Source: an uncultured Hyphomicrobiales bacterium
Lineage (GTDB): Bacteria; Pseudomonadota; Alphaproteobacteria; UBA7879
Direction of reading: 5' to 3'
Assembly: GCA_964402405.1 (NCBI GenBank)
Contig: CAYOCE010000001.1
Location: forward strand, 435-64,434
Length of the DNA: 64,000 nt
Position 1 is the stretch's first letter. Each line of letters opens with the position of its first letter. Under the pieces are notes generated by a model. The model did no database searches. It was not told the origin of the DNA and was given only the letters and a program-made list of their open reading frames with translations. Positions 192-52,988 of this stretch are shown here, in pieces. The position numbers and the translations under genes were made by a program.

Positions 192-3100
192 TCAGGAACA
201 ACCACTGGTGCTGCCGCATGTATCACACTTCATGCAGGTGCCATTGCGCACTAGGGTGAAATTGCCACAATCCTGACAGGCATCTCCGGCGTATCCCTGA
301 ATACGGGCACGGCGAACCTTTTCCTCGGTGCCCCCCGCTTTACTAGCCGAAGATATGGTCGATCCAGAAGTAGATCCCTTGGCAGGGGCTATATTTCCAT
401 TGGCAAAGGTCTCGCCCCCCACAACGTACAGATTACTGCGCATATAACCGGTGCTGGCACCTGCAGCCATTTCTGGTTGTGGAGCTCTCTCTACTAATTT
501 GCTTTCTTGGCTTGCGTTTCCAATGCTATCAGGGGTGAGGCTGCTTTTGTCTACATGGGCCAAATCCGTACGACCCAAATAGGAAATAGCCAACTCACGG
601 AACAAATAATCCAGGATAGACGTTGCCATCTTGATGGCATTATTCCCAGTAACCAATCCTGAAGGCTCAAAGCGCGTAAAGGTAAAGGCCTCAACAAACT
701 CCTCAAGCGGCACGCCGTATTGCAACCCAATGGAAATGGACATGGCAAAGCTGTTCATTAGGCTGCGGAAGGCAGCCCCTTCTTTGTGCATATCAATGAA
801 GATTTCCCCAACGGCCCCATTTTCATATTCCCCCGTGCGCAGGTAAACCTTGTGGCCCCCAACAGTTGCCTTCTGGGTATACCCCGTACGCCTGGCGGGC
901 AAACTGCGTCGCTCGGCCCGATGGAAAATCTTTTCCACAATGCGTTCCACGATCTTGGTGGTTTGTTGATGCTTGGAAGAATCGGTAAAGGCATCAATCT
1001 CATCCTCATCATCAAAAAGAACGCTGGCGTTCAAAGGCTGGGACAGCTTGGATCCATCGCGATACAAGGCATTGGCCTTGATCCCCAGGCGCCAGGATAG
1101 CATATAAGCATCCTTGCATTCCTCGATGGTGGCCCGGGCTGGCATATTCACGGTTTTGGAGATGGCACCTGAAAGGAATGGCTGGCATGCCGCCATCATT
1201 TTAATGTGGCTTTCTACAGAGAGGAACCGTTTCCCGATGCGGCCACAAGGATTGGCGCAATCGAAAACAGGTAGATGCTCATCCTTCAAATGAGGGGCAT
1301 CCTCAAGGGTCATCGCCCCACAGCAATAGGTGTTGGCGGATTCAATGTGTTCTGTTGAAAACCCTAAAGCCCGTAGCATATCAAAGGAAGGATCATTCAA
1401 TTGATCTTGGGTAAATCCAAGAGTCTTGGTACAAAACTCTTCGCCCAGGGTCCATTTATTAAAGGCAAATTTAACGTCAAAGGCAGATTTCAACGCACTC
1501 TTCAGCGCCTTGATTTCCTTATCTCCAAAGCCCTTTTCCTTTAGCATCTTAAAACTGACAGCTGGCGAATTTTCAAGGGTGCCATGGCCTGTTGCATAAA
1601 TAATAATCTCATCGATCTGAGATTTAGTGTACCCCAGGGTTTTCAAGGCATTGGGAACCATTTGGTTGATGATTTTGAAATACCCACCCCCGGCTAATTT
1701 CTTAAACTTCACCAACGCGAAATCAGGTTCAATGCCCGTTGTATCGCAATCCATCACCAGACCAATAGTACCTGTTGGGGCGGTTAATGTTGTCTGGGCG
1801 TTTCTATATCCGTATTTCTCCCCCAGCTCTAAAGCCTGGTCCCATGCCTGTTGGGCAGCTTCAACCAATCCCTCTACAGGGCAATTTTTAGTATCCAATG
1901 GAACGGGGAGAATATCCAATTTCTCATAGCCTTGGGATTCGCCATAGGCTGCGCGTCGATGGTTTCTGATGACCCGCAACATATCTGGGGCATTGTGCTC
2001 ATACCTTGGAAAGGCCCCTAATTCTTTGGCCATTTCAGCAGAAGTGGCGTAACTGACCCCTGTCATCAGGGCGGAAATTGCCCCTGCATAGGCCCTCCCC
2101 ACTTCGCTATCATAAGAAAGACCAGAGGACATCAACAAGCCCCCAATATTGGCAAATCCAAGTCCTAGGGTACGATAGTTATAGGTTCCCCAGGCAATTT
2201 CCTTGGAGGGGAGCTGGGACATTTGAACAGCCAGCTCTAAAACAATGGTCCATAGGCGTGTCGCATACGCGAAGCCCTCTGTATCAAAATGAATCTCATT
2301 AGGTTCTGGATTATGGTAAAACTGCATCAAATTAAGAGAGGCAAGGTTGCACGCTGTATCATCTAAAAATAGATATTCCGAACAAGGATTGGAAGCTTTA
2401 ATTCGACCGTCCTTAGGGCATGTATGCCAATCATTAATGGTTGTATCATATTGGATTCCTGGATCCGCACAGGACCAGGCAGCATAGGCAATTTTGTCCC
2501 ATAAATCTTTGGCTTTTATTTTTTTGAAAACGCTGCCATCGGTTCTGGCAATGAGGTTCCAGTCTTCATCCTTCAAGACCTTGTTCAAAAACTCATCTGT
2601 AACGCGGATGGAGTTATTGGAATTTTGCCCTGAAACTGTGAGGTAGGCTTCGGACTGCCAATCTGTGTCATAGACCTGAAAATCGATGTCTTCTTTGCCT
2701 TGGATCAAAACTTGCAATACGCGATTTATATAACTTTCAGGAACCAGGTCTTTGCGTGCATCGCGAATGGCTGATTTCAATACAGGATTTTTATGGGGAT
2801 CAGCACAGTGATCATTGTCTTGAACAGCTTTGACAATAATAGCCAAGTGTTTTTTGATTTGCTTGGATCCAGCAACGAGGGACGCCACTTTTTGCTCCTC
2901 GATCACCTTCCAATCAATGAATTCCTCAACATCCGGGTGATCCACATCAATCACCACCATCTTGGCCGCACGTCTGGTTGTGCCTCCTGATTTGATCGCG
3001 CCTGCAGCCCTATCTCCAATTTTCAGAAAGCTCATCAAGCCAGAAGATTTTCCACCCCCAGAAAGTTTTTCCCCTTTGCCTCTCAGGTTTGAAAAGTTTG

Positions 3101-3797
3101 TGCCCGTTCCAGACCCGAATTTAAAGAGGCGTGCCTCCCGAACCCATAGGTCCATGATGCCACCATCGCTAACTAAATCATCGCGGATGCTTTGAATAAA
3201 ACAAGCATGGGGCTGAGGACGAGCATAGGAACTGCCTGATGCGACGAGTTCATTTGTTTTGGGATCAACATAATAATGACCCTGAGCAGGCCCATCGATG
3301 CCATAGGCCCAATGAAGCCCCGTATTAAACCATTGAGGAGAGTTTGGAGCACACATCTGCATGGCCAGCATGTATCGCATCTCATCAAAAAACGTACGCG
3401 CATCTTCCTCGGTGTTAAAATATCCACCCTTCCAACCCCAGTAGGTCCAAGTGCCTGCCAAACGATCAAAAACTTGACAGGATGATATTTCACCCCCAAA
3501 GCGTTCTGCAGGATCTAATTTTTCTAAAGCCTCTTGATCTGCCCCATGGCACCATAACCAAGAAGGAACACCTTCTTCAGGAAGGGGCTTTAGAAACTTT
3601 GGAACACCTGCTTTGCGAAAATATTTTTGAGCTAAAACATCAGAGGCTACTTGAGACCATTTGGAAGGAACCAAAACGTTTTCCAGCTTGAAAACAGAAC
3701 CCCCATCAGGGTTTTTAATGTCACAATTGATTGATTTAAATTCGATACCTTCGTAGGGGGACTGATTGGCCACAGTAAAGCGCCTAGCAATATACAT
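192..3797 (-). CDS. nrdJ: Class II (adenosylcobalamin-dependent) ribonucleotide reductase, ~1200 aa
   Basis: 1201-aa ORF with the RNR 10-stranded barrel region (motifs ...PCSEY..., ...CNLASLNL...) and a Cys-rich C-terminal tail ([28 protein letters not shown]) typical of long alphaproteobacterial NrdJ. Upstream RBS is aaggaga. Confidence 0.9.
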
Positions 3798-3834
3798 AGT
3801 TAATTCTCCTTAAAAATCCTTAATAACACGCTTC

Positions 3835-3920
3835 GTCTTTTGAGCTGTGGTCATTAAATTTCCGGCACCTTCGTCGGGCATGTACTATAGTACATTATCC
3901 CTCCTCGGCCCCTCATTTAA
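3835..3920 (-). promoter_or_regulatory. Conserved structured leader element, copy A, in the nrdJ 5' UTR
   Basis: ~85 nt closed by ctgtgg/ccacag and attaaat/atttaat stems, with an internal perfect 16-nt palindrome atgtactatagtacat (3870-3885). It is about 85% identical to the element upstream of fdxA (14940-15024), in the same orientation relative to the gene. Confidence 0.4.
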
Positions 3921-4288
3921 TCTCCCACAGTTCAAAATACTTCAGCTATTTATGCTCTAAATTTTGAAACGTAGGCAACGTATTATTATCAAAATACATT
4001 TGAAATCGTTGGGCTCAACCGTGCACCTTAAAAGCCTAATTTTCCAATCAAGCTTTTAGCACGAAACACATCCCCAAAAAAAAGCCCCAAACACAACATA
4101 TAGTTTTATATTTCTTTTATGATAACTATATATTGATATGAGTACCCCATTTTTACCCCCCATGCAAGGAAAAAAATTTCTTTTTTGAAAGATATTTATC
4201 CCATAAAAAATTTATGAGATAATGGCCTATATCAGTCTATTGACAACCTTTTTATATAGAATACACTTAAAATCACTATAAAAATGGA

Positions 4289-4801
4289 ATGCCTATTTAC
4301 AAAAAGGAAAGAATCAAAATGAAAACAAGCAAAATGAATATCCTGGAAACTTTTTTGGGAGGAGCAGTTCTTGTTTTTGCAGGCGTTCTATTAATTTTTG
4401 CCTATATAAGAAATGAAAAAGATACTATCAAAGGATATGTCATAACAGCCAAATTTGATAAGATTGATGGGTTGGTAGCAGGATCTGATGTGCGGATGAG
4501 TGGTATTAAGATTGGGAGTGTTGCGAATCAAGCACTAGATCCCACCTCTTATTTAGCTATTGTGAATATGAATATTGCTAATCACGTGAAGATTCCTACA
4601 GATTCATCGGCCTCTGTTGTGAGCGAAAGTCTTTTAGGGGGAAAATATATGGATGTTGTCCCCGGTGGTGATGATACGTTTCTAAAGCCAGGCGAAGCAA
4701 TTCAACACACTCAATCCTCAGTAAACTTTGAAAAAATGATTGGGCAAGCTATCTTTAGTAGTAAAGATAGCAAGGATAAAAAAGAAGAAACCAATAATTG
4801 A
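4289..4801 (+). CDS. mlaD: MlaD (Mce-domain) outer-membrane lipid asymmetry protein
   Basis: N-terminal TM anchor followed by an Mce domain (ITAKFDKIDGLVAGSDVRMSGIKIGSV...YLAIVNMNI). The true start is probably the internal Met at ~4319 (MKTSKMNILE). Confidence 0.8.
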   Translation: MPIYKKERIKMKTSKMNILETFLGGAVLVFAGVLLIFAYIRNEKDTIKGYVITAKFDKIDGLVAGSDVRMSGIKIGSVANQALDPTSYLAIVNMNIANHVKIPTDSSASVVSESLLGGKYMDVVPGGDDTFLKPGEAIQHTQSSVNFEKMIGQAIFSSKDSKDKKEETNN

Positions 4802-5313: not shown

Positions 5314-6078
5314 ATGATATATTATGTAAGGGAGTGCTCATCAAAAATAAATAGAAATATTTTTTCTTTTGTTTTTTTTCTTATATTATTTGCATTAATC
5401 TGTTTCTTTTCCTTGTCTTATATAGATCAACAAAACACATTGGAATTCTATAATAAGCAGCTCCAAATACTAACCGTAGATCTCAAAAAGTCTACCTCAA
5501 AGGAACTCGGAGAAGCTGAGCAAATTAAAGACTTGGAAAGAATCGTAGCTCAAGAAAAAAATATTATAGGGTCAGATGAAAATAAAATTAAAGAATACAA
5601 AAACTTATTGCAGGGGATTATGTCATCCGCTCAATATCAAGTATATAAATACTTTAAAGAAAACGTAAAAGAATACCCTGATATTTCTTTCTCAAATGAC
5701 AAATTTTTATTTAATCAAAAGGTTTATTTTTCCCCAGGATCCACGCGCCTAAGTAAAGAAGATCAAAAAACCATAGATCAAATAATACCAATTCTTAATC
5801 AGATGGAATCAAGGGTTCCACAACATCTAAATTGGGCACTACGAATTGAAGGTCATACAGATAACAAACCAGTTGATACAGATTTATACCCTTCAAATTG
5901 GTACCTTTCAACAGCACGAGCAGCTAAAGTAGTGGAATATCTAATTAAAAAGGGAATTAATTCCAAACACTTAATTGCTATAGGGTTTGGGGATAATAAT
6001 CCCATTTCAGACAATCAAACAACTGAAGGTAAATCTCAAAACAGACGTGTTGAATTTGTAATTGGATTCAAAGACTAA
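5314..6078 (+). CDS. OmpA/MotB-domain peptidoglycan-binding membrane protein
   Basis: N-terminal TM helix, a coiled-coil segment, and a C-terminal OmpA-like domain (NWALRIEGHTDNKPV...LSTARAAKVVEYLIKKGI...NRRVEFVI). Confidence 0.7.
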   Translation: MIYYVRECSSKINRNIFSFVFFLILFALICFFSLSYIDQQNTLEFYNKQLQILTVDLKKSTSKELGEAEQIKDLERIVAQEKNIIGSDENKIKEYKNLLQGIMSSAQYQVYKYFKENVKEYPDISFSNDKFLFNQKVYFSPGSTRLSKEDQKTIDQIIPILNQMESRVPQHLNWALRIEGHTDNKPVDTDLYPSNWYLSTARAAKVVEYLIKKGINSKHLIAIGFGDNNPISDNQTTEGKSQNRRVEFVIGFKD

Positions 6079-6155
6079 TACTATTTCCCAGAAATAAGCA
6101 TCCATCTGACCTGCAGCATTTTGGTCATTTGAATACTTATTTCTGGGAAATAGTA
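6079..6155. repeat. Perfect 20-bp inverted repeat (37-nt loop) immediately after the OmpA-family gene stop
   Basis: tactatttcccagaaataag (6079-6098) is the exact reverse complement of cttatttctgggaaatagta (6136-6155). No U-tract follows. It separates the OmpA-family gene from the three-gene cluster below. Confidence 0.6.
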
Positions 6156-6237
6156 TAAGAAAGTTCTTAAGAGAAAACTACAGAGGTATTGCATCTCTCT
6201 ATCAATTCATATACTCTAAAATAAATATAAAAAACTT

Positions 6238-7074: not shown

Positions 7075-8021
7075 ACCGAAAAATTTTATTAATCTTTGTT
7101 TTCTTAGCTTTTGGATCTCGCTCTATTTTAGCGGATGGATCTCATTTTGTCATGGGAACAAACTTAGTAAGTCAGCTTTATTGGGTAATTGGAGCAAACT
7201 TATGTCAACTGATGCACTCCAAGAATGCTGGATTTGAATGTTTAGCAGAAAAATCAGATGGTTCTGTTGCTAATGTCTGGGGGCTTAAAGAAGGGCTATT
7301 TGATATAGCTTTAGCAGGAAAAGATACCGTTGAGCGTATGTATAAAGGGGATCCAGAAAATGGAGTTAATCCAATTTCTTCTCTTCGATTAATTATGCCC
7401 CTTTATGTCAATAAATTTACGATCATTACAAACCCTCAATCAAAAATTGGTACCCCCAATGACTTAAAAGGAAAAAAAATTGATATTGGTGTCAGAGGGT
7501 CAGAATCCTATAGGGCTTTTAAAGATTTTATGAAAATTAAAGGATGGACTGATAAAGATTTTGGAAAAATTTATGCATCAGAGCCATTTACACAAAAATC
7601 TAATTTATTAAAAAACAAAGTTGATGCCATTACTATATTTGAAGGAAGTCCAAATTCATGGGTTTGGCGTATTCTAGATGTATATCCTGGGCATATTCTA
7701 TCTTTAGATGCCCAAGATATATCAGCATTAAGTCAAAAATTCAAAAATTACATTCCTGTAACTATGGATGCAAAAATGTACCCCAATAATAACTATGTTA
7801 TTCAAACATTTGGAACAGAAGTATATTTGGTCGCAACAGAATCAACAAATCCAGATATTATATATACGTTCTTAAAAACAGTAGATCAAAATATGTATGA
7901 GTTAAAAAAAACGCACCCCGTTCTAGCAGATGTTTATACTTATAATGTAAAAAGAGAGAAACCGATCATTCCTCTGCATCTGGGTGCTGAACGTTACTTG
8001 ATTGAAAGAGGCATACTATGA
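7071..8021 (+). CDS. Periplasmic solute-binding-protein-like, TAXI/TRAP-type family, with no cognate permease nearby
   Basis: Signal peptide. GTNLVSQLYWVIGANL near the N-terminus and DLKGKKIDIGVRGSESYRAFKDFMKIKGW resemble TAXI-family receptors. The start overlaps the upstream gene and the stop overlaps the downstream secretin gene. Confidence 0.45.
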   Translation: MNRKILLIFVFLAFGSRSILADGSHFVMGTNLVSQLYWVIGANLCQLMHSKNAGFECLAEKSDGSVANVWGLKEGLFDIALAGKDTVERMYKGDPENGVNPISSLRLIMPLYVNKFTIITNPQSKIGTPNDLKGKKIDIGVRGSESYRAFKDFMKIKGWTDKDFGKIYASEPFTQKSNLLKNKVDAITIFEGSPNSWVWRILDVYPGHILSLDAQDISALSQKFKNYIPVTMDAKMYPNNNYVIQTFGTEVYLVATESTNPDIIYTFLKTVDQNMYELKKTHPVLADVYTYNVKREKPIIPLHLGAERYLIERGIL

Positions 8022-9847
8022 GTAAAAATGTGAAAATGGGGTTGTTTTCTAGTATGATTTTGGCTTTTGTGGCGTGTACCCCTCAAAAGAACCAACATAC
8101 TTTGGATCCTAAATCAAAAGCTAAAGCGGAAGATTTTATTGTGATGCTAAAAGAAAGCACTAACAATACTCTTAGCACTCATGAAATTGAAGGAATAGAG
8201 CTACTTTATAAGGGATCCTATCAGAAGGCATCTGAAAAATTTAGTTTGGCTCTGGCTTTTTCGCCCCAGTCTGGATCTGCTCATTTTTTAAATGCTCTTG
8301 CGTATCATTTATTGGCTAAAGAGGGAAATACAAGTAAAAATGAATTAGCTGAAGTTGGATATGGTCTTGCTAAAAACTTTTCACCCGATAATGTTTATGC
8401 ATCTTATTATCATGGTATTTTAAATTTTGAAAACAAGAAATATCGGGAAGCCCAACAAAACTTTGCAGATGCTCTAATTCTAAGGCCAAATGATCCTAAA
8501 ATTCTGTATGCTTTGAGTGTTGCCTCTTATTATTCCCATGATTTACAGGTGGCAGCGGGCGCTATTGCACAAGCTATACGTTTAGATCCAGCTTCTGCAA
8601 AGTATTTACATGCGGCAGCGTTAATTATGGCTGCGGAAGGCAAAGAACAAGAAGCCCAAGAATATACAAACAAATTAATAGAATCTGGGGCCTCTAAAGG
8701 ACAACTAGAATTTTTGTCGAAGAGAATTAAAGAGTGGAAACAATTTCATAACGGTCTGTTAAAAAAAGCAAGCTGGAGCATTGAAAATACTCAGGGTGCC
8801 CAATCAGATAAAACTGATTCAACAGAAGAAAAAAATCATGATGATGATATGATTATTGTAGATGTGGTGATTGTTTTGGCTCAAGAAAACCTCAATGAGG
8901 CGCAAGGCATGAATCTATTGTCTGGATTACAATTAACATTTGGGGCACCCAATACGACTATTACCGGTGGTACACAAACCCCTGGTTATTCAAACACGCG
9001 AAACATTGGAACTGCAGGTTCATTTTCTAAAAGTATTGTAACAAATATCAGTATTCCCGCAATTACCTATCAATTAAATATAGCCAATATACAAGGATCC
9101 AATACAGAGGTTCTCGCACGCCCCAGTCTGGTGGCGCGTAATGGAAAAATGTCCAAATTTTTTTCAGGAGACGTCTTAACAATTGGACTTGCAGGAAGTG
9201 CAGGAGGAAACCCTACTTATAAAGATAACAAGGTTGGGGTTAATTTACAGGTAACCCCTCGCATTTTAGAAGATGGTCAGGTCAATTTGCAAATTACTGC
9301 TTCTAGAAACTTTTTTACATCAACTAATACGAATGTTACTGGTGGTAATAATTCTTTCCAAAACAGCCTTCAGGTATCTGATACGGAAATCACTGCAGAT
9401 GTGGTTTTAAATATCGGAGATACTTTGATTCTAGGGGGGCTTAGCGAAAAACAACAACAAGTAAATACAGACTCCACGCCAATTTTAGGAGATATTCCCA
9501 TCATACAACATTTATTTAGTGCAAAAAAAACAGCGCTCATAAATCGGTCCGTTATTATTTTGGTAACACCTCGTTTTCCTTCTTACACTTATCAAACACA
9601 GAATACCCGGAAAAAAAATGCCCACTTTAAAGATGGAGATAACAAGCCTAGCAATCTTGATGAATTAAAGGCCCGTTATATTGATTGGTTCAAGCCCTAT
9701 CCTAACCTAGCTTCGGCCTTTCATCATATTGATAACTATAATCTCTATCGAGAGTTTAGGACAGGAGACGTACAACTAGAGCAATGGAATCGCATGGATG
9801 ATTTAATGGATCGCATACAATCAAGTATGGAGTTCTTATATTATTAG
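8018..9847 (+). CDS. TPR-repeat (pilotin-like) lipoprotein fused to a secretin C-domain
   Basis: Lipobox (ILAFVAC) and ~250 aa of TPR-like repeats, followed by a secretin domain (ARPSLVARNGKMSKFFSGDV...VGVNLQVTPRILEDGQVNL...TPILGDIPIIQHLFS...RSVIILVTPRF). No recognisable N0/N1 secretin domains. Confidence 0.7.
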   Translation: MSKNVKMGLFSSMILAFVACTPQKNQHTLDPKSKAKAEDFIVMLKESTNNTLSTHEIEGIELLYKGSYQKASEKFSLALAFSPQSGSAHFLNALAYHLLAKEGNTSKNELAEVGYGLAKNFSPDNVYASYYHGILNFENKKYREAQQNFADALILRPNDPKILYALSVASYYSHDLQVAAGAIAQAIRLDPASAKYLHAAALIMAAEGKEQEAQEYTNKLIESGASKGQLEFLSKRIKEWKQFHNGLLKKASWSIENTQGAQSDKTDSTEEKNHDDDMIIVDVVIVLAQENLNEAQGMNLLSGLQLTFGAPNTTITGGTQTPGYSNTRNIGTAGSFSKSIVTNISIPAITYQLNIANIQGSNTEVLARPSLVARNGKMSKFFSGDVLTIGLAGSAGGNPTYKDNKVGVNLQVTPRILEDGQVNLQITASRNFFTSTNTNVTGGNNSFQNSLQVSDTEITADVVLNIGDTLILGGLSEKQQQVNTDSTPILGDIPIIQHLFSAKKTALINRSVIILVTPRFPSYTYQTQNTRKKNAHFKDGDNKPSNLDELKARYIDWFKPYPNLASAFHHIDNYNLYREFRTGDVQLEQWNRMDDLMDRIQSSMEFLYY

Positions 9848-9854
9848 TATACCC

Positions 9855-9937
9855 CTCGTCTTTCAAACTGTGGATCGCAAAATTTACTGATTCACGCATT
9901 ACAACTACCAATCCACCCATTACATTTGTGGATTGTT
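9855..9937. repeat. Mosaic short repeat, copy C, with hairpins; shares modules with the nrdJ/fdxA leader elements
   Basis: ctcgtctttcaaactgtgg (9856-9875) matches the 5' module of elements A and B. tgattcacgcattaca and caatccac...gtggattg (9889-9936) match the tgattcacgcgttacacttgtgaatca module at 15022-15048. It lies between two convergent genes. Confidence 0.35.
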
Positions 9938-10045
9938 GCCTAACGGCCGTGGATCATTGCCTAAAGGTCTGAAATACTGTGGGTATAGTAGGACCTTTGC
10001 ATAACTCTTTCTTACCGGCGGAAGCCAGGGTGGTTGCAAACTAAC

Positions 10046-10081
10046 AAAAAACCCAGAAGATTACTCTTCTGGGTTTTTTAT
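10046..10081. terminator. Bidirectional rho-independent terminator between the secretin gene and tlc
   Basis: cccagaag(10052-10059)/cttctggg(10066-10073) hairpin with an A6 run upstream and a T6 run downstream. Confidence 0.65.
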
Positions 10082-10101: not shown

Positions 10102-11646
10102 TCAAGACTTTTCTGCAGCCTTTTGTTCTTCAACCAAGGTTGTAAAGCGCTTGTTAAGGCGTATAACCGAGAACATCCAAATAAGACAAATCACGATCAC
10201 TGTGGGGCCTAAGATATAGGTGAGGCTTGCCAAAGAGACACTCCCACCAATTACCGCAAGCATCGTTGATTGAATGAATGCTCCACCGGATTTACCCAGG
10301 CGTCCACCGATAACCTCAACCGCTGCTTGACCCTTGGTCTTAGCCTCAGGATCCAGAGGGATATAAGCCATCTGCTTAGTGGAATCAAATAGGGAGTACT
10401 TGGTTCCCTTGGACATCACGTTTTGGATCAATCCAACAATCACAGCCACCATGACAACCGTCGTTCCCATCAATGGCATTGTTGGATCATGGGTCACTCC
10501 ATCCCAAACAACGAGGAAGAAAATAGAGGATGTCACCAAGATCATCAATGGCGTAATGATCGCAGCCTTGAGCCAGCTGAAGCGACGCAAGATATTGTTT
10601 CCCACAACCATCAGAGCAATCGTAATCGCCCCTGTCCATGTGGTGAATACACCCATGAAGTTGTTATAGTCGTTCTTGTCTGGGAACGCGATCTTCATCT
10701 GTCCCTTCCACACGCCCTCAACCAAGTTAATGGCGATTCCATAGGATAGAACCAAAACAGCAATGAGCAAAAGATAAGGGTTGCTGAGGATATATTTAAA
10801 GCTTTGACCAACAGAAAGCTTTTCTTTCTTTTTCTTACCAGATCCTTGACCTGGTTGATAAAGAGCTGGGTCAGTTAAAACGTTCTTGTTCATCCAACGA
10901 TAGATGGTCAGAATTAAAAGTCCAGAAACCATAACTGCCCCCATGAGGAATTTTAGGTTGATACCAAAGGTATCCACGTTAGCTGGAAGACTTTTAGCAT
11001 ACTGGGCACACATCATAATAGTAGGACCAGCAACCACCAATCCCAGGTTTCCAATCATGCCAAACAATCCATAAAAACGCTTAGCTTCGTTAACTTTGGT
11101 AATTTCGTTGGCAAACTGCCAGAACAACATAGACAACACCACACTTCCCCATAGTTCTGAGAAAATGTAGAAGAGGCTAAAGCTCCAGTTACCCACAACA
11201 GGGATTGCCCAGTGGAGGTTAGGAAGCTTTGCTTGCCACGTGGTAATTGTGTCTAAGCTTGCATGAAAAAGTTCTATATTAGGGTAGATCAAAAAGGCAA
11301 AAGACCCGAAGAAAATCAAGAAAGGCGCCACAATGACATAGAATAATTTTTCCCGATCAAACACGTTTGCAAGCTTGATGAAAATAACCATAAACAAAAT
11401 AGCCGAAGGTGTAACCCCATAAAGCTTGAGGAATCCAAGGCTTTCTGCCCCGCCTCCTGGCATGTTCACAACCAACGTATCCTTGGTATCACGAACAATG
11501 TTGTATATAAAAAGGATACACATCATCATAAGGCCCATGGGTAAGAACTTCTTTATTTCGAAGTTATAAATGGGCCAGAATATTGCTTTAAAACCCGAAA
11601 ACTCTGGCTTATCAGCAGCTTTATTGGTAGATGACATGATTTTCAC
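10102..11646 (-). CDS. tlc: ATP/ADP translocase (nucleotide transporter, NTT/Tlc family)
   Basis: 514-aa 12-TM protein with the characteristic Tlc N-terminus (FWPIYNFEIKKFLPMGLMMMCILFIYNIVRDTKDTLVV) and overall Tlc-family architecture. Confidence 0.9.
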   Translation of the reverse strand: MKIMSSTNKAADKPEFSGFKAIFWPIYNFEIKKFLPMGLMMMCILFIYNIVRDTKDTLVVNMPGGGAESLGFLKLYGVTPSAILFMVIFIKLANVFDREKLFYVIVAPFLIFFGSFAFLIYPNIELFHASLDTITTWQAKLPNLHWAIPVVGNWSFSLFYIFSELWGSVVLSMLFWQFANEITKVNEAKRFYGLFGMIGNLGLVVAGPTIMMCAQYAKSLPANVDTFGINLKFLMGAVMVSGLLILTIYRWMNKNVLTDPALYQPGQGSGKKKKEKLSVGQSFKYILSNPYLLLIAVLVLSYGIAINLVEGVWKGQMKIAFPDKNDYNNFMGVFTTWTGAITIALMVVGNNILRRFSWLKAAIITPLMILVTSSIFFLVVWDGVTHDPTMPLMGTTVVMVAVIVGLIQNVMSKGTKYSLFDSTKQMAYIPLDPEAKTKGQAAVEVIGGRLGKSGGAFIQSTMLAVIGGSVSLASLTYILGPTVIVICLIWMFSVIRLNKRFTTLVEEQKAAEKS

Positions 11647-14591: not shown

Positions 14592-14918
14592 TTATTCTGA
14601 GGTAGGTTTAAAATAGGCCATCTTATCTTCTTTCTTGGCCCATTCGTCCGCATCTGGCAAAGGGGGTTTTTGTTCAGTAATCCGGGGCCAGAGAGATGAA
14701 TATTTTTTGTTAAAAGCAACCCATTCCTCGGATCCAGGGGTTGTATCAGGAATAATGGCGTTGGCAGGACATTCTAGCTCACATACCCCACAGTCAATGC
14801 ATTCCTCGGGGTTAATCACCAACATATTATCCCCTTCATAGAAACAATCCACAGGGCAAACCGTTACACAATCCGTATATTTACAGTTAATACAAGCACT
14901 TGTTACAACGTACGTCAT
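14592..14918 (-). CDS. fdxA: 7Fe ferredoxin ([3Fe-4S][4Fe-4S], FdxA type)
   Basis: [29 protein letters not shown]...[12 protein letters not shown] cysteine pattern. Confidence 0.9.
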
Positions 14919-14939
14919 CTCTACTCTTCGCCTTTCAAA

Positions 14940-15048
14940 CTATGGTCATTAAATTTCGAGTACCTTCGTCGCGCATGTATGAAGGATACACTATCGCTCC
15001 TCGGTCTCTCATTTAAATTAATGATTCACGCGTTACACTTGTGAATCA
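14940..15048 (-). promoter_or_regulatory. Conserved structured leader element, copy B, in the fdxA 5' UTR, plus an appended hairpin module
   Basis: ctatggtcattaaatttcgagtaccttcgtcgcgcatgta...ctcctcggtctctcatttaaattaatga aligns with the nrdJ leader. The variable hairpin (gtat-gaagg-atac) replaces the nrdJ palindrome and shows covariation. The element is followed by the tgattcacgcgttacacttgtgaatca hairpin. Confidence 0.4.
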
Positions 15049-15115
15049 CTGATCAGCCTCCCCTAAAGTTTTAGGGTAGGCAGATTCCCATATTTTGAAA
15101 TCCGAAGAGTATTTT

Positions 15116-21134: not shown

Positions 21135-22325
21135 ATGAAGGCCTTCGCCAAAAAATTCTCCCTAACACTTCCTAGAGGCATTCTTTTTCTCTCCATCGCT
21201 GGGTTTTGTATTAACATTGCTACAACCATGGTATATAGCCAGCTTCCCATGTACTTAACAAATGTCTTGGGGTTTTCTGCTTATAATGTGGGGATGCTTG
21301 ATGGGATCGTAGAATGCTTATCCCATATCACCCGCATTTTATCTGGAAGCTTTAGCGATTTTTTGCGCCAAAGAAAAATGATTCTCCTTGCAGGATACAG
21401 CCTTTCTTTCTTAGCAAAACCCATATTAATTTTTGCAGGCTCCATTGGATGGGTGTTCTGTTCCCAGGCCCTTGATCGTTTTAGCAATGGGATGCAAGCA
21501 TCTCCACGGGATGCGTTGGTAGGGGATCTGATTGACAAAGAAAAACGAGGAGCAGGCTATGGATTCATGAGGTCCTTACGGACAGCTGGATCATGGATGG
21601 GGGCCTTAGTCGCCATGACCCTAATGATCTTCTTTTGTAATAATTTTCAGATGGTATTTGCCTTGTCCCTTATTCCCTGTGGTCTTGCCATTATATTGCT
21701 ATATACAGGGGTAAAAGAGCCAAAAAAAACCAACTCTTCAAAGCATTATAAAATAACTTTTGCCCACTTGAAGTTGTTAAATGCACCGTATTGGAAGCTT
21801 ATTCTCATGGCAAGTTTCTTTGAAATGGCCCATTTTAGTGAATCCTTCCTTAGCTTGCGTGCCCACCAAGTTGGCCTTGAAGTATCCCATATGGGATTTG
21901 TCATGATTGTCATGAATGTGGGTCAATTTCTTGTTTCCTATCCGTTGGGTATTTTGTCGGATCGATTTAATCGAAAGATATTTCTAGGAATTGGATTTGT
22001 GATGATGATCCTTGCCAATTGTTTCATGGCTCTTCCCAACAATATTTATTATGTATTGGTAGGGGTTTTCTTGTGGGGGGCCCAAATGGGAACCACCCAA
22101 AGTATCTTTTTAACAATGATTAGCGACACTGTTCCCAAGGAATTACGAGGAACAGGTTTTGGAATTTTTTACTTCCTTACAGGTCTTTGTTATTTATTAT
22201 CTAGTATGATCGCTGGAAAAATTTGGGATACTGTCGGATCTTTGTATACCTTTATGAGCAGTGGCATAATTGCAATTTTATCTTTTGGAATCTTACTGTT
22301 TATGCTACGGTCTAGAAAGCGCTAA
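21135..22325 (+). CDS. MFS transporter
   Basis: 12-TM profile with MFS loop motifs (GSFSDFLRQRK...; GILSDRFNRK). Confidence 0.7.
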   Translation: MKAFAKKFSLTLPRGILFLSIAGFCINIATTMVYSQLPMYLTNVLGFSAYNVGMLDGIVECLSHITRILSGSFSDFLRQRKMILLAGYSLSFLAKPILIFAGSIGWVFCSQALDRFSNGMQASPRDALVGDLIDKEKRGAGYGFMRSLRTAGSWMGALVAMTLMIFFCNNFQMVFALSLIPCGLAIILLYTGVKEPKKTNSSKHYKITFAHLKLLNAPYWKLILMASFFEMAHFSESFLSLRAHQVGLEVSHMGFVMIVMNVGQFLVSYPLGILSDRFNRKIFLGIGFVMMILANCFMALPNNIYYVLVGVFLWGAQMGTTQSIFLTMISDTVPKELRGTGFGIFYFLTGLCYLLSSMIAGKIWDTVGSLYTFMSSGIIAILSFGILLFMLRSRKR

Positions 22326-22467
22326 TTTAATATATCCGAACTATTTTGAAGTGTGGGAAACTAAATGAGGAATCAAAGAACGTAAGTATATTCTTTATAC
22401 ATGTGTACCGCAGATTTCCAAAATTTAGTGATCCACAATTCAAAAGAGGAGGAAGAAGGGTTGCATA

Positions 22468-22884
22468 ATGTTTTGGGCACTAGATGTACAATTACAGATG
22501 GATACGATCAAAATTGTTGATTTAGACTTGTGCCAGGCACGCTTGATGAATGATCAAAGGCTCCCCTGGATTATACTGATCCCCAAACGTGAAGGAATTG
22601 AAGAAATCTATCAACTCAATAAAAACGATCAGATTTCTTTAATGAGAGAGATTGAAATTACGTCTCATGTTTTACGAGAGGCCTTTAATCCCTACAAACT
22701 AAATATCGCTGCCCTTGGCAACATGGTCAGGCAGCTGCATGTTCATGTTATCGTTCGGTTTGAACAGGATCATGCCTGGCCCAAGCCTGCCTTTGGGCAC
22801 GGGGAAGCTGTTCCCTATGACAAAGATAAGCTAAGTCATCAAATTGCCATGCTACAGACCCGTTTTGAAGAACATCGGGGATAG
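22468..22884 (+). CDS. HIT-family (histidine triad) hydrolase
   Basis: HVHVIVR histidine-triad motif. The start is possibly the internal Met at 22498. Confidence 0.7.
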   Translation: MFWALDVQLQMDTIKIVDLDLCQARLMNDQRLPWIILIPKREGIEEIYQLNKNDQISLMREIEITSHVLREAFNPYKLNIAALGNMVRQLHVHVIVRFEQDHAWPKPAFGHGEAVPYDKDKLSHQIAMLQTRFEEHRG

Positions 22885-52198: not shown

Positions 52199-52774
52199 TT
52201 ATACAGCTTCCACGGCATAAGAAGGAAGCGAAATATGCATCTCTCGCCCTAAAAAGGTTAACAACAGTTGAACACGCTGTTTATCACTCATAAGCTCTAA
52301 TACACCTGTGTGGTCTTTAAAGACGCCCTCTAATACACGAACTTTATCACCTTTTGTGAACGTCGCCAAGCTGTTTACAGAAACGATCCCGCTCTCTATT
52401 TCTTGTGATTTTAAATCCTCAATAATTTGCATCGATAGGTATGCAGGATGTTTATCGCTTTCCATTAATAAATAAGACACACCCCGGGTTCCATTGATAC
52501 TGCGCCACCTGGTAGTTTCTAAATTCACTCCCACAAACAAATATCGAGGGAACAATGGCGCCAAGACTTCTTCCACCTTGCGTGCGTGACGGCGCAGTCT
52601 TTTAAATCTTGGTAAATAAACCTCAAACCCTTGATCAAGTAAATTCTTTTGGGCTATGAGTTCTTTTGAAGGTTGTGTATAGGCAACGCACCAATTGGTC
52701 AGAGAGGGATCTTCGTGAGATGTAGTAATATTCCTTAGCTTTTTTTCCTCCAAAGTATTTTGGAAAATTGCCAT
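52199..52774 (-). CDS. NusG-paralog transcription antiterminator (RfaH/UpxY-like) at the head of the polysaccharide locus
   Basis: NGN domain (WCVAYTQPSKE...GFEVYLPRF) plus a KOW motif (FTKGDKVRVLEGVFKDHTGVLE). It is followed by a 288-nt untranslated spacer before pseB. Confidence 0.7.
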   Translation of the reverse strand: MAIFQNTLEEKKLRNITTSHEDPSLTNWCVAYTQPSKELIAQKNLLDQGFEVYLPRFKRLRRHARKVEEVLAPLFPRYLFVGVNLETTRWRSINGTRGVSYLLMESDKHPAYLSMQIIEDLKSQEIESGIVSVNSLATFTKGDKVRVLEGVFKDHTGVLELMSDKQRVQLLLTFLGREMHISLPSYAVEAV

Positions 52775-52909
52775 TTAGAGCACCCCTTAAAAACCAGAAA
52801 ACAAAATTATGTTCATGAACAAAACTTATCTTAAATTGTCACACTAGTCAACGGTACCTTGAAATTTTTTATGTTCAACTGCATTTCCTCTACTTTAAAA
52901 GAAATGAGT

Positions 52910-52937
52910 CCTCTTTTCCAAAATTTTGGAAAAGAGG
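52910..52937. terminator. Perfect 28-bp palindrome between the upstream GT-B gene and the NusG paralog (terminator or operator)
   Basis: cctcttttccaaaattttggaaaagagg equals its own reverse complement. A T-rich tract follows on the minus strand. Confidence 0.5.
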
Positions 52938-52988
52938 AACCACCGACTACAGTTTATAAAATATAAGTAAAACTTTCTGACTTACGAT

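Follow-up and report, generated by a model that had tools for sequence, protein, structure and literature searches.

A probable MITE-like palindromic repeat family upstream of nrdJ, fdxA and a HIT-family gene in an uncultured alphaproteobacterium

The sequence shared by the regions just 5' of nrdJ and fdxA in the stretch of DNA analysed here (64,000 nucleotides, hereafter the window) most probably belongs to a lineage-specific family of selfish, non-coding palindromic repeats that is MITE-like and encodes no transposase, a reading to which we assign a probability of about 80%. Two interpretations had been offered in the initial annotation: a leader RNA that co-regulates nrdJ and fdxA, and mosaic mobile hairpin repeats resembling the Rickettsia palindromic elements (RPEs). 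The latter fits all of the evidence, as a likeness in kind, with three full copies in the window and empty sites in relatives. The former was not supported, given that the element is missing from the nrdJ leaders of relatives, that a further copy lies at a HIT-family gene, that the conserved blocks are not shared by all copies and that no Rfam family matches.

Prokaryotic MITEs are shorter than 500 bp, carry terminal inverted repeats of 4–30 bp, lie between genes and give rise to transcripts with stable stem-loops (PMC10969869). The family described here has the size of such elements, terminal inverted repeats, a stable stem-loop fold and filled and empty orthologous sites, and it contains no transposase gene. 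We call it MITE-like because target-site duplication was inconsistent and a cognate transposase was not found among the 28 window proteins scanned. The copies would have spread by transposition, with a transposase acting in trans.

This defines a previously undescribed repeat family for an uncultured Holosporales-like lineage and opens no new mechanism. The striking covarying structure in the leaders of two redox/cofactor-related genes mimics a new riboregulator, which calls for caution in annotation. Such a repeat family can also break assemblies, and it marks recent genome change.

The window has a GC content of 38.5% and is AT-rich alphaproteobacterial DNA. The presence of a gene for a TLC ATP/ADP translocase (10102..11646) suggests an intracellular lifestyle. 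Among named organisms, Candidatus Bealeia paramacronuclearis, a member of the Holosporales, gave the best NrdJ match (68% identity); the host thus appears to be Holosporales-like and not Rickettsia.

Census of the repeat family

A census of the family in the window (nhmmer; covariance model, filters off) recovered three full copies together with fragments:

3829..3941, minus strand: full-length copy in the nrdJ 5' leader, ~113 nt (nhmmer E = 1.7e-35; covariance model 126 bits)
14924..15109, minus strand: composite copy in the rpe-fdxA spacer, ~186 nt (nhmmer E = 1e-29; covariance model 100.6 bits)
22340..22458, plus strand: third full-length copy, in the MFS-HIT spacer, ~119 nt (nhmmer E = 5e-32; covariance model 120.9 bits)
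9850..9985, no strand assigned: degenerate mosaic remains of the element (nhmmer E = 2e-4; fold z about -2.5)

Profile (nhmmer) and covariance-model scores of the nrdJ and fdxA copies were 99–126 bits, and the covariance-model E-values were 1e-28 for the nrdJ copy and 1e-22 for the fdxA copy. The window has 23 intergenic regions of 50 nt or more, and copies or fragments are present in 4 of these; all nhmmer and covariance-model matches above noise were intergenic. The neighbouring genes (nrdJ, a 7Fe ferredoxin, a HIT hydrolase and a secretin/TLC pair) are functionally unrelated. The full copies measure 113, 119 and 186 nt, with longest stop-free stretches of 37–39 codons, not enough to encode a transposase. 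A scan of 28 window proteins revealed neither a transposase nor a parent insertion sequence whose ends match.

One frame in each of the nrdJ and HIT copies is free of stop codons over the full length (37 and 39 codons, respectively). RPE-type elements need a stop-free frame to sit inside genes; a stop-free frame over the full length is expected by chance in about half of random AT-rich sequences this long.

A hairpin with 37-nt arms that are 86% complementary was observed at 6075-6159, between genes for an OmpA-family protein and a pentapeptide-repeat protein. It gave a weak covariance-model match on both strands (E about 0.1) and could represent a further palindromic element or else a large terminator.

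The copy at nrdJ

The gene nrdJ (192..3797, minus strand) encodes a class II ribonucleotide reductase. The initial annotation was right that an element is shared 5' of nrdJ and fdxA in gene sense, that is, on the minus strand; the shared core spans ~3829-3941 and 14924-15018. At nrdJ the site had been placed correctly, and its bounds shift from 3821-3935 to ~3829 and ~3941. The copy ends 31 nt from the nrdJ ATG (3795-3797), and the conserved Shine-Dalgarno (SD) site AAGGAG lies downstream of it. Its predicted RNA fold has an energy of -42.1 kcal/mol (z = -6.7 vs shuffles) and includes the following parts, the two arms being paired in the fold:

3835..3850, no strand assigned: terminal inverted repeat arm GTCTTTTGAGCTGTGG, helix 1
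3925..3940, no strand assigned: partner arm CCACAGTTCAAAATAC, helix 1
3880..3895, no strand assigned: apical hairpin, a perfect 16-nt palindrome ATGTACTATAGTACAT (helix columns 48-53 / 59-64)

At the position of the apical hairpin, the fdxA copy carries GTGTAT..ATACAT and the HIT copy GTATA..TATAC. A reading of the palindrome at 3880-3895 as an NrdR box was rejected: it is single, it lies within the insertion, and other hairpins stand in the other copies. In NrdR operators, 16-bp boxes stand in tandem close to the promoter, with a spacing of about three helical turns, and are shared by orthologues; the conserved tandem NrdR-like boxes of nrdJ are those at 4092-4137. We also rejected a reading of the element as a CcrM-site (GANTC) repeat, as GANTC is missing from the nrdJ copy.

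The composite copy at fdxA

The gene fdxA (14592..14918, minus strand) encodes a 7Fe-type ferredoxin (Fer4 + DUF3470). The rpe-fdxA spacer (14919-15115) is wholly filled by the copy, which, with its TA flanks counted, begins 4 nt past the rpe stop codon and stops 3 nt before the fdxA ATG. These flanks are found on both sides (TA|CTCTTCG...CGAAGAG|TA). A 24-nt terminal inverted repeat (14922-14945 / 15088-15111) encloses the copy, within which lie three hairpins: the nrdJ-like core (14946-15018), module 2 (15021-15049) and one more at 15057-15082. It folds as a three-hairpin junction with a closing stem (-72.9 kcal/mol, z = -8.4). The closing stem had earlier been thought to exist in the nrdJ copy only; its partner at fdxA, CCATATTTTGAAATCCGAAGAGTA, is found at 15088-15111, ~70 nt further outward past the two extra hairpins. 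A purine run at the 3' end of the copy abuts the fdxA ATG, and the sole candidate SD site of fdxA (GAAGAG), located in the 3' inverted repeat arm GGCGAAGAG, sits within the closing stem.

Two metagenome contigs from independent assemblies, with an identical fdxA (L001 and L002), both stop inside the element, at window positions ~14975 and ~14984, 9 nt apart and near the apical hairpin. These ends hint at more near-identical copies elsewhere in the genome, with which they are compatible; low coverage is another possible cause. We set these breaks aside as evidence because the same assemblies break within genes too.

The copy at the HIT-family gene and the fragments at 9850-9985

The earlier list of copies was correct for nrdJ, fdxA and the fragment but overlooked the full copy at 22340-22458 on the plus strand. 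This copy follows the stop codon of the gene for an MFS transporter (21135..22325) and precedes the SD site and ATG of a HIT-family gene (22468..22884), and it is 63–67% identical to the other two. Its inverted repeat arms lie at 22341-22356 and 22433-22448, and its fold has an energy of -31.7 kcal/mol (z = -4.2). It retains the terminal repeats, the apical hairpin and the ATTAAAT/ATTTAAT stem, the last with the compensatory change ACTAAAT/ATTTAGT.

The remains at 9850-9985 are situated between the convergent genes for a secretin (8018..9847) and the TLC ATP/ADP translocase. They comprise one element end (9850-9873), a second end-like stretch (9966-9985) and, between them, module-2-like hairpins (9889-9935). 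The dinucleotide TA adjoins the end of the 9850 fragment. Two observations of the initial annotation were borne out here: the 5' module recurs for a third time between convergent genes, at 9854-9873 with 1 mismatch in 20 nt, and a second hairpin module is common to the fragment and the fdxA copy (9889-9903 / 15023-15037). A bidirectional terminator-like palindrome, AAAAAACCCAGAAGA..TCTTCTGGGTTTTTT, was seen at 10046-10079 in the same spacer, adjoining the element fragments.

Sequence and structure conservation

The nrdJ and fdxA cores are 75–79% identical, and they share blocks of 18 nt and 20 nt for which 0–0.02 matches were expected in shuffles. Terminal inverted repeats were found in all three full copies (16 nt at nrdJ and HIT, 24 nt at fdxA), with a consensus of approximately CTTCGNCTTTYRANCTRTGG ... 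CCAYAGNTYRAAAGNCGAAG and with CTCTTCGNNTTTCAAANTATGG as the sequence of the element end. One long imperfect hairpin is common to the three copies, with 36 pairs, 91.7% of cells paired and 6 pairs changed on both sides; this level was reached by only 1 of 500 shuffles, and slid controls were 26–51% paired. In the alignment of the three full copies, the inner hairpins indeed covary between copies, as had been proposed.

The nrdJ and fdxA copies are conserved in blocks, most densely in purine-rich unpaired stretches. The SD-like blocks CCGAGGAG and CGACGAAGGU, earlier put forward as a conserved feature of the element, occur in these two copies and are missing from the HIT copy.

All three full copies are in sense orientation to the downstream gene, just 5' of its start codon, a count that rests on three copies and carries no statistical power. 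In each of them the sense-strand fold beats the antisense fold by 6–10 kcal/mol. The shared orientation and the better sense-strand folds could hint at selection at the RNA level. Counted in the sense strand, 4 G-U pairs and 3 A-C mismatches give no clear sign of strand asymmetry.

Filled and empty sites in relatives

The two closest metagenomic relatives recovered have NrdJ proteins 89% and 84% identical to that of the window. A comparison of orthologous nrdJ upstream regions, which the initial annotation had suggested as a check, found the element missing from both leaders (L013 and L014). The nrdJ leader is conserved nearly base for base in the relatives over a TTGCAT promoter, two NrdR-box-like palindromes, a long 5' UTR block and the SD site AAGGAGAATTAA. 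In the window it is ~80 nt longer, and the difference falls in an otherwise variable segment.

The MFS-HIT spacer measures 142 nt in the window vs 24 nt (L022) and 20 nt (L023) in the two closest relatives. The AAGG SD site of the HIT gene is kept, downstream of the extra 119 nt. From this sequence comparison, the HIT copy is best described as a clean insertion into a short MFS-HIT spacer. The element was absent upstream of HIT in L022, L023 and L024, no element-like sequence was found downstream of the secretin gene in L014, and nhmmer and covariance-model searches of ~48 kb of the relatives' contigs returned zero copies. No matching flanks that would represent a target-site duplication were seen at the nrdJ and HIT copies, even when these were compared with the relatives' empty sites.

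For fdxA, a more distant relative (L021, FdxA 79% identical) has a leaderless gene that overlaps its upstream neighbour. A GC-rich duplicated ferredoxin that was considered as an fdxA orthologue for comparison was discarded as irrelevant. As database searches gave no further copies, the case for mobility comes from four loci in a single 64-kb window and from presence and absence at two sites.

What appears to be the real nrdJ control region lies at 4092-4167 (minus strand), ~300 nt upstream of the ATG, and is conserved in L013 and L014. It consists of the TTGCAT promoter element (4162-4167) followed by the NrdR-box-like 16-nt palindromes atcaatatatagttat (4122-4137) and aaaactatatgttgtg (4092-4107), all of them almost invariant over the three lineages. 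The nrdJ 5' UTR block at ~3990-4090 (minus strand), which includes gagcccaacgatttcaaatg, is non-coding yet invariant in the three lineages, and could be a genuine leader element; it had no Rfam match at E values up to 10.

Alternative explanations

The main mechanistic rival to a cut-and-paste MITE is a single-stranded-DNA route, by which the repeats would be DNA hairpins mobilised by a Y1 (HUH) transposase, either as REP/BIME-like units with a RAYT or as an IS200/IS605-type palindrome-associated element. Such a route would suit the conservation of hairpin structure rather than sequence, the compensatory changes in the inner stems, the mosaic and modular layout of the hairpins, and the nrdJ and HIT copies without a convincing target-site duplication. 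The units of 113–186 nt closed by long terminal inverted repeats, however, contrast with the 20–40-nt units of REP sequences, the fdxA copy has candidate TA flanks, and no RAYT or IS200-type gene was found among the 28 window proteins scanned; we regard this route as distinctly unlikely. Very improbable is a cis-regulatory leader RNA of the riboswitch, protein-binding or thermosensor type, with a regulon made up of nrdJ, fdxA and perhaps the HIT gene. Neither the nrdJ leader nor the MFS-HIT spacer of the two closest relatives contains the element, and in L021 fdxA is leaderless, overlapping the upstream gene. Although the full copies all stand in sense just 5' of start codons, with compensatory changes that preserve the structure and with sense folds more stable than antisense ones, one element end lies between convergent genes and has no downstream gene. 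The blocky conservation in purine-rich unpaired stretches of the nrdJ and fdxA copies is likewise what a leader RNA would display, but the HIT copy is without these conserved unpaired blocks. In addition, nrdJ has its own conserved promoter and NrdR-like boxes ~300 nt upstream, and Rfam matches none of the copies.

It is also conceivable, if doubtful, that a repeat was domesticated, its hairpin and purine-rich 3' end forming a portable intercistronic module that would act as an RNase III processing or stabilising site and as a replacement SD site, and that selection kept this module only in sense orientation before genes. The sense orientation in 3/3 full copies agrees with this but, with n = 3, has no statistical power, and the G-U (4) and A-C (3) counts lack the clear strand asymmetry that would speak for it. 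Two copies fit exactly between a stop codon and the ribosome-binding region of the next gene, the only candidate SD site of fdxA (GGCGAAGAG) is inside the closing stem, and the hairpin is not followed by a U-tract, so that read-through is expected. Correia and ERIC elements, for comparison, are cleaved by RNase III or alter mRNA decay (PMC10969869). Quite unlikely, too, is a reading in which the retained copies are not neutral and the element is a portable RNA module, locked in orientation, that inserts after a stop codon and before the start codon that follows. It would insulate or process polycistronic mRNA through its long hairpin and would supply or mask the SD site of the downstream gene with its purine-rich 3' arm; if true, such a module would reorganise translational coupling in an endosymbiont with a reduced genome.

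Possible effects on neighbouring genes

Under the preferred MITE-like reading, any effects on neighbouring genes would be by-products of insertion and not the expression of a shared regulon. The full copies are probably co-transcribed with their neighbours, because they sit in the nrdJ 5' UTR or in the tight co-oriented rpe-fdxA and MFS-HIT spacers; the nrdJ copy is downstream of the conserved promoter and within the 5' UTR. A role in termination is not indicated: the hairpins are without a U-tract, so transcription would be expected to read through them. Possible side effects include a target for double-strand-specific RNase, changed mRNA stability, and masking or supply of an SD-like purine run. 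By analogy with the Correia and ERIC elements, for which RNase III cleavage or altered mRNA decay is known (PMC10969869), such effects on the expression of nrdJ, fdxA and HIT are plausible. The fdxA copy, as modelled, would be the most suggestive case for the masking or supply of an SD site.

Comparison with known repeat families

The repeats resemble prokaryotic MITEs (e.g. Coxiella QMITE1/2 and the Cardinium MITE; PMC10969869) in size, in the lack of a transposase gene and in intergenic location. They are also alike in their terminal inverted repeats (16–24 nt here), very stable stem-loop, dispersed copies and presence/absence between relatives. They differ in that a parent insertion sequence and a consistent target-site duplication were not found, with copies counted in one 64-kb window.

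With RPE-1 to RPE-10 they share a palindromic form of ~100–150 bp, a host of the obligate-intracellular alphaproteobacterial type, lineage specificity and divergence of sequence while the hairpin is maintained. RPEs are known for inserting in frame into protein-coding genes (PMC10969869), whereas the copies found here are all intergenic and their host appears not to be Rickettsia; the likeness is one of kind.

The Correia elements of Neisseria (CREE/NEMIS) are similar in length (~100–155 bp), in their long terminal inverted repeats and in often lying directly 5' of genes. Further points of likeness are co-transcription, the pairing of the repeat arms into a hairpin and the possible TA flanks at one copy here. 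In contrast to them, no sigma-70-like promoter was found in the nrdJ copy, the only copy scanned (simple consensus scan of 3700-4300), and the TA duplication is inconsistent. The two have no sequence relationship, as neither blast nor the pattern scans yielded anything beyond this lineage.

ERIC/IRU sequences of enterobacteria are also imperfect palindromes (~127 bp) transcribed within operons, and the effects of ERIC on mRNA decay are orientation-dependent. They belong to another phylum and have another sequence, and the family described here includes composite variants such as the three-hairpin fdxA copy. REP/BIME sequences, which are imperfect palindromic units of 20–40 nt associated with RAYT, differ from the elements of 113–186 nt closed by terminal inverted repeats.

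Database and literature searches

A known RNA family, which the initial annotation had named as an objection to novelty, did not emerge from Rfam: no relevant family matched in the whole window at the gathering score, or at the nrdJ and fdxA loci at E values up to 10. With Rfam 15, one tRNA alone reached the gathering score in the whole window. The best sub-threshold match was Guanidine-III at 12 bits (threshold 36), and the fdxA region had none.

The pattern TCATTAAATTTN{4,6}CCTTCGTC gave 10 single matches in 185,579 reference genomes, all in unrelated taxa and judged to be chance. A pattern for the 3' end that fits all three copies had 5 matches in JGI metagenomes, 0 of which contained the other blocks of the element. 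No copy was found in viral contigs (pattern scans) or plasmids (blastn), and the literature searched contained no description of such a repeat family in Holosporales. Because the reference, JGI, viral, plasmid and literature searches gave nothing beyond chance matches, the family seems, on these comparisons, to be restricted to this lineage, or else sampling of the lineage is very sparse.

Other features of the window

A low-GC block at ~27200-52000 (31–37% GC vs 40–46% elsewhere) has nearly all of its ORFs on the minus strand, with a glycosyltransferase gene first. This is a probable surface-polysaccharide cluster, possibly gained by horizontal transfer. A NusG/RfaH-like gene (52199..52774) stands at the head of a long minus-strand cluster, and a perfect 30-nt palindrome, TCCTCTTTTCCAAAATTTTGGAAAAGAGGA, is located in the spacer upstream of this gene at 52909-52938.
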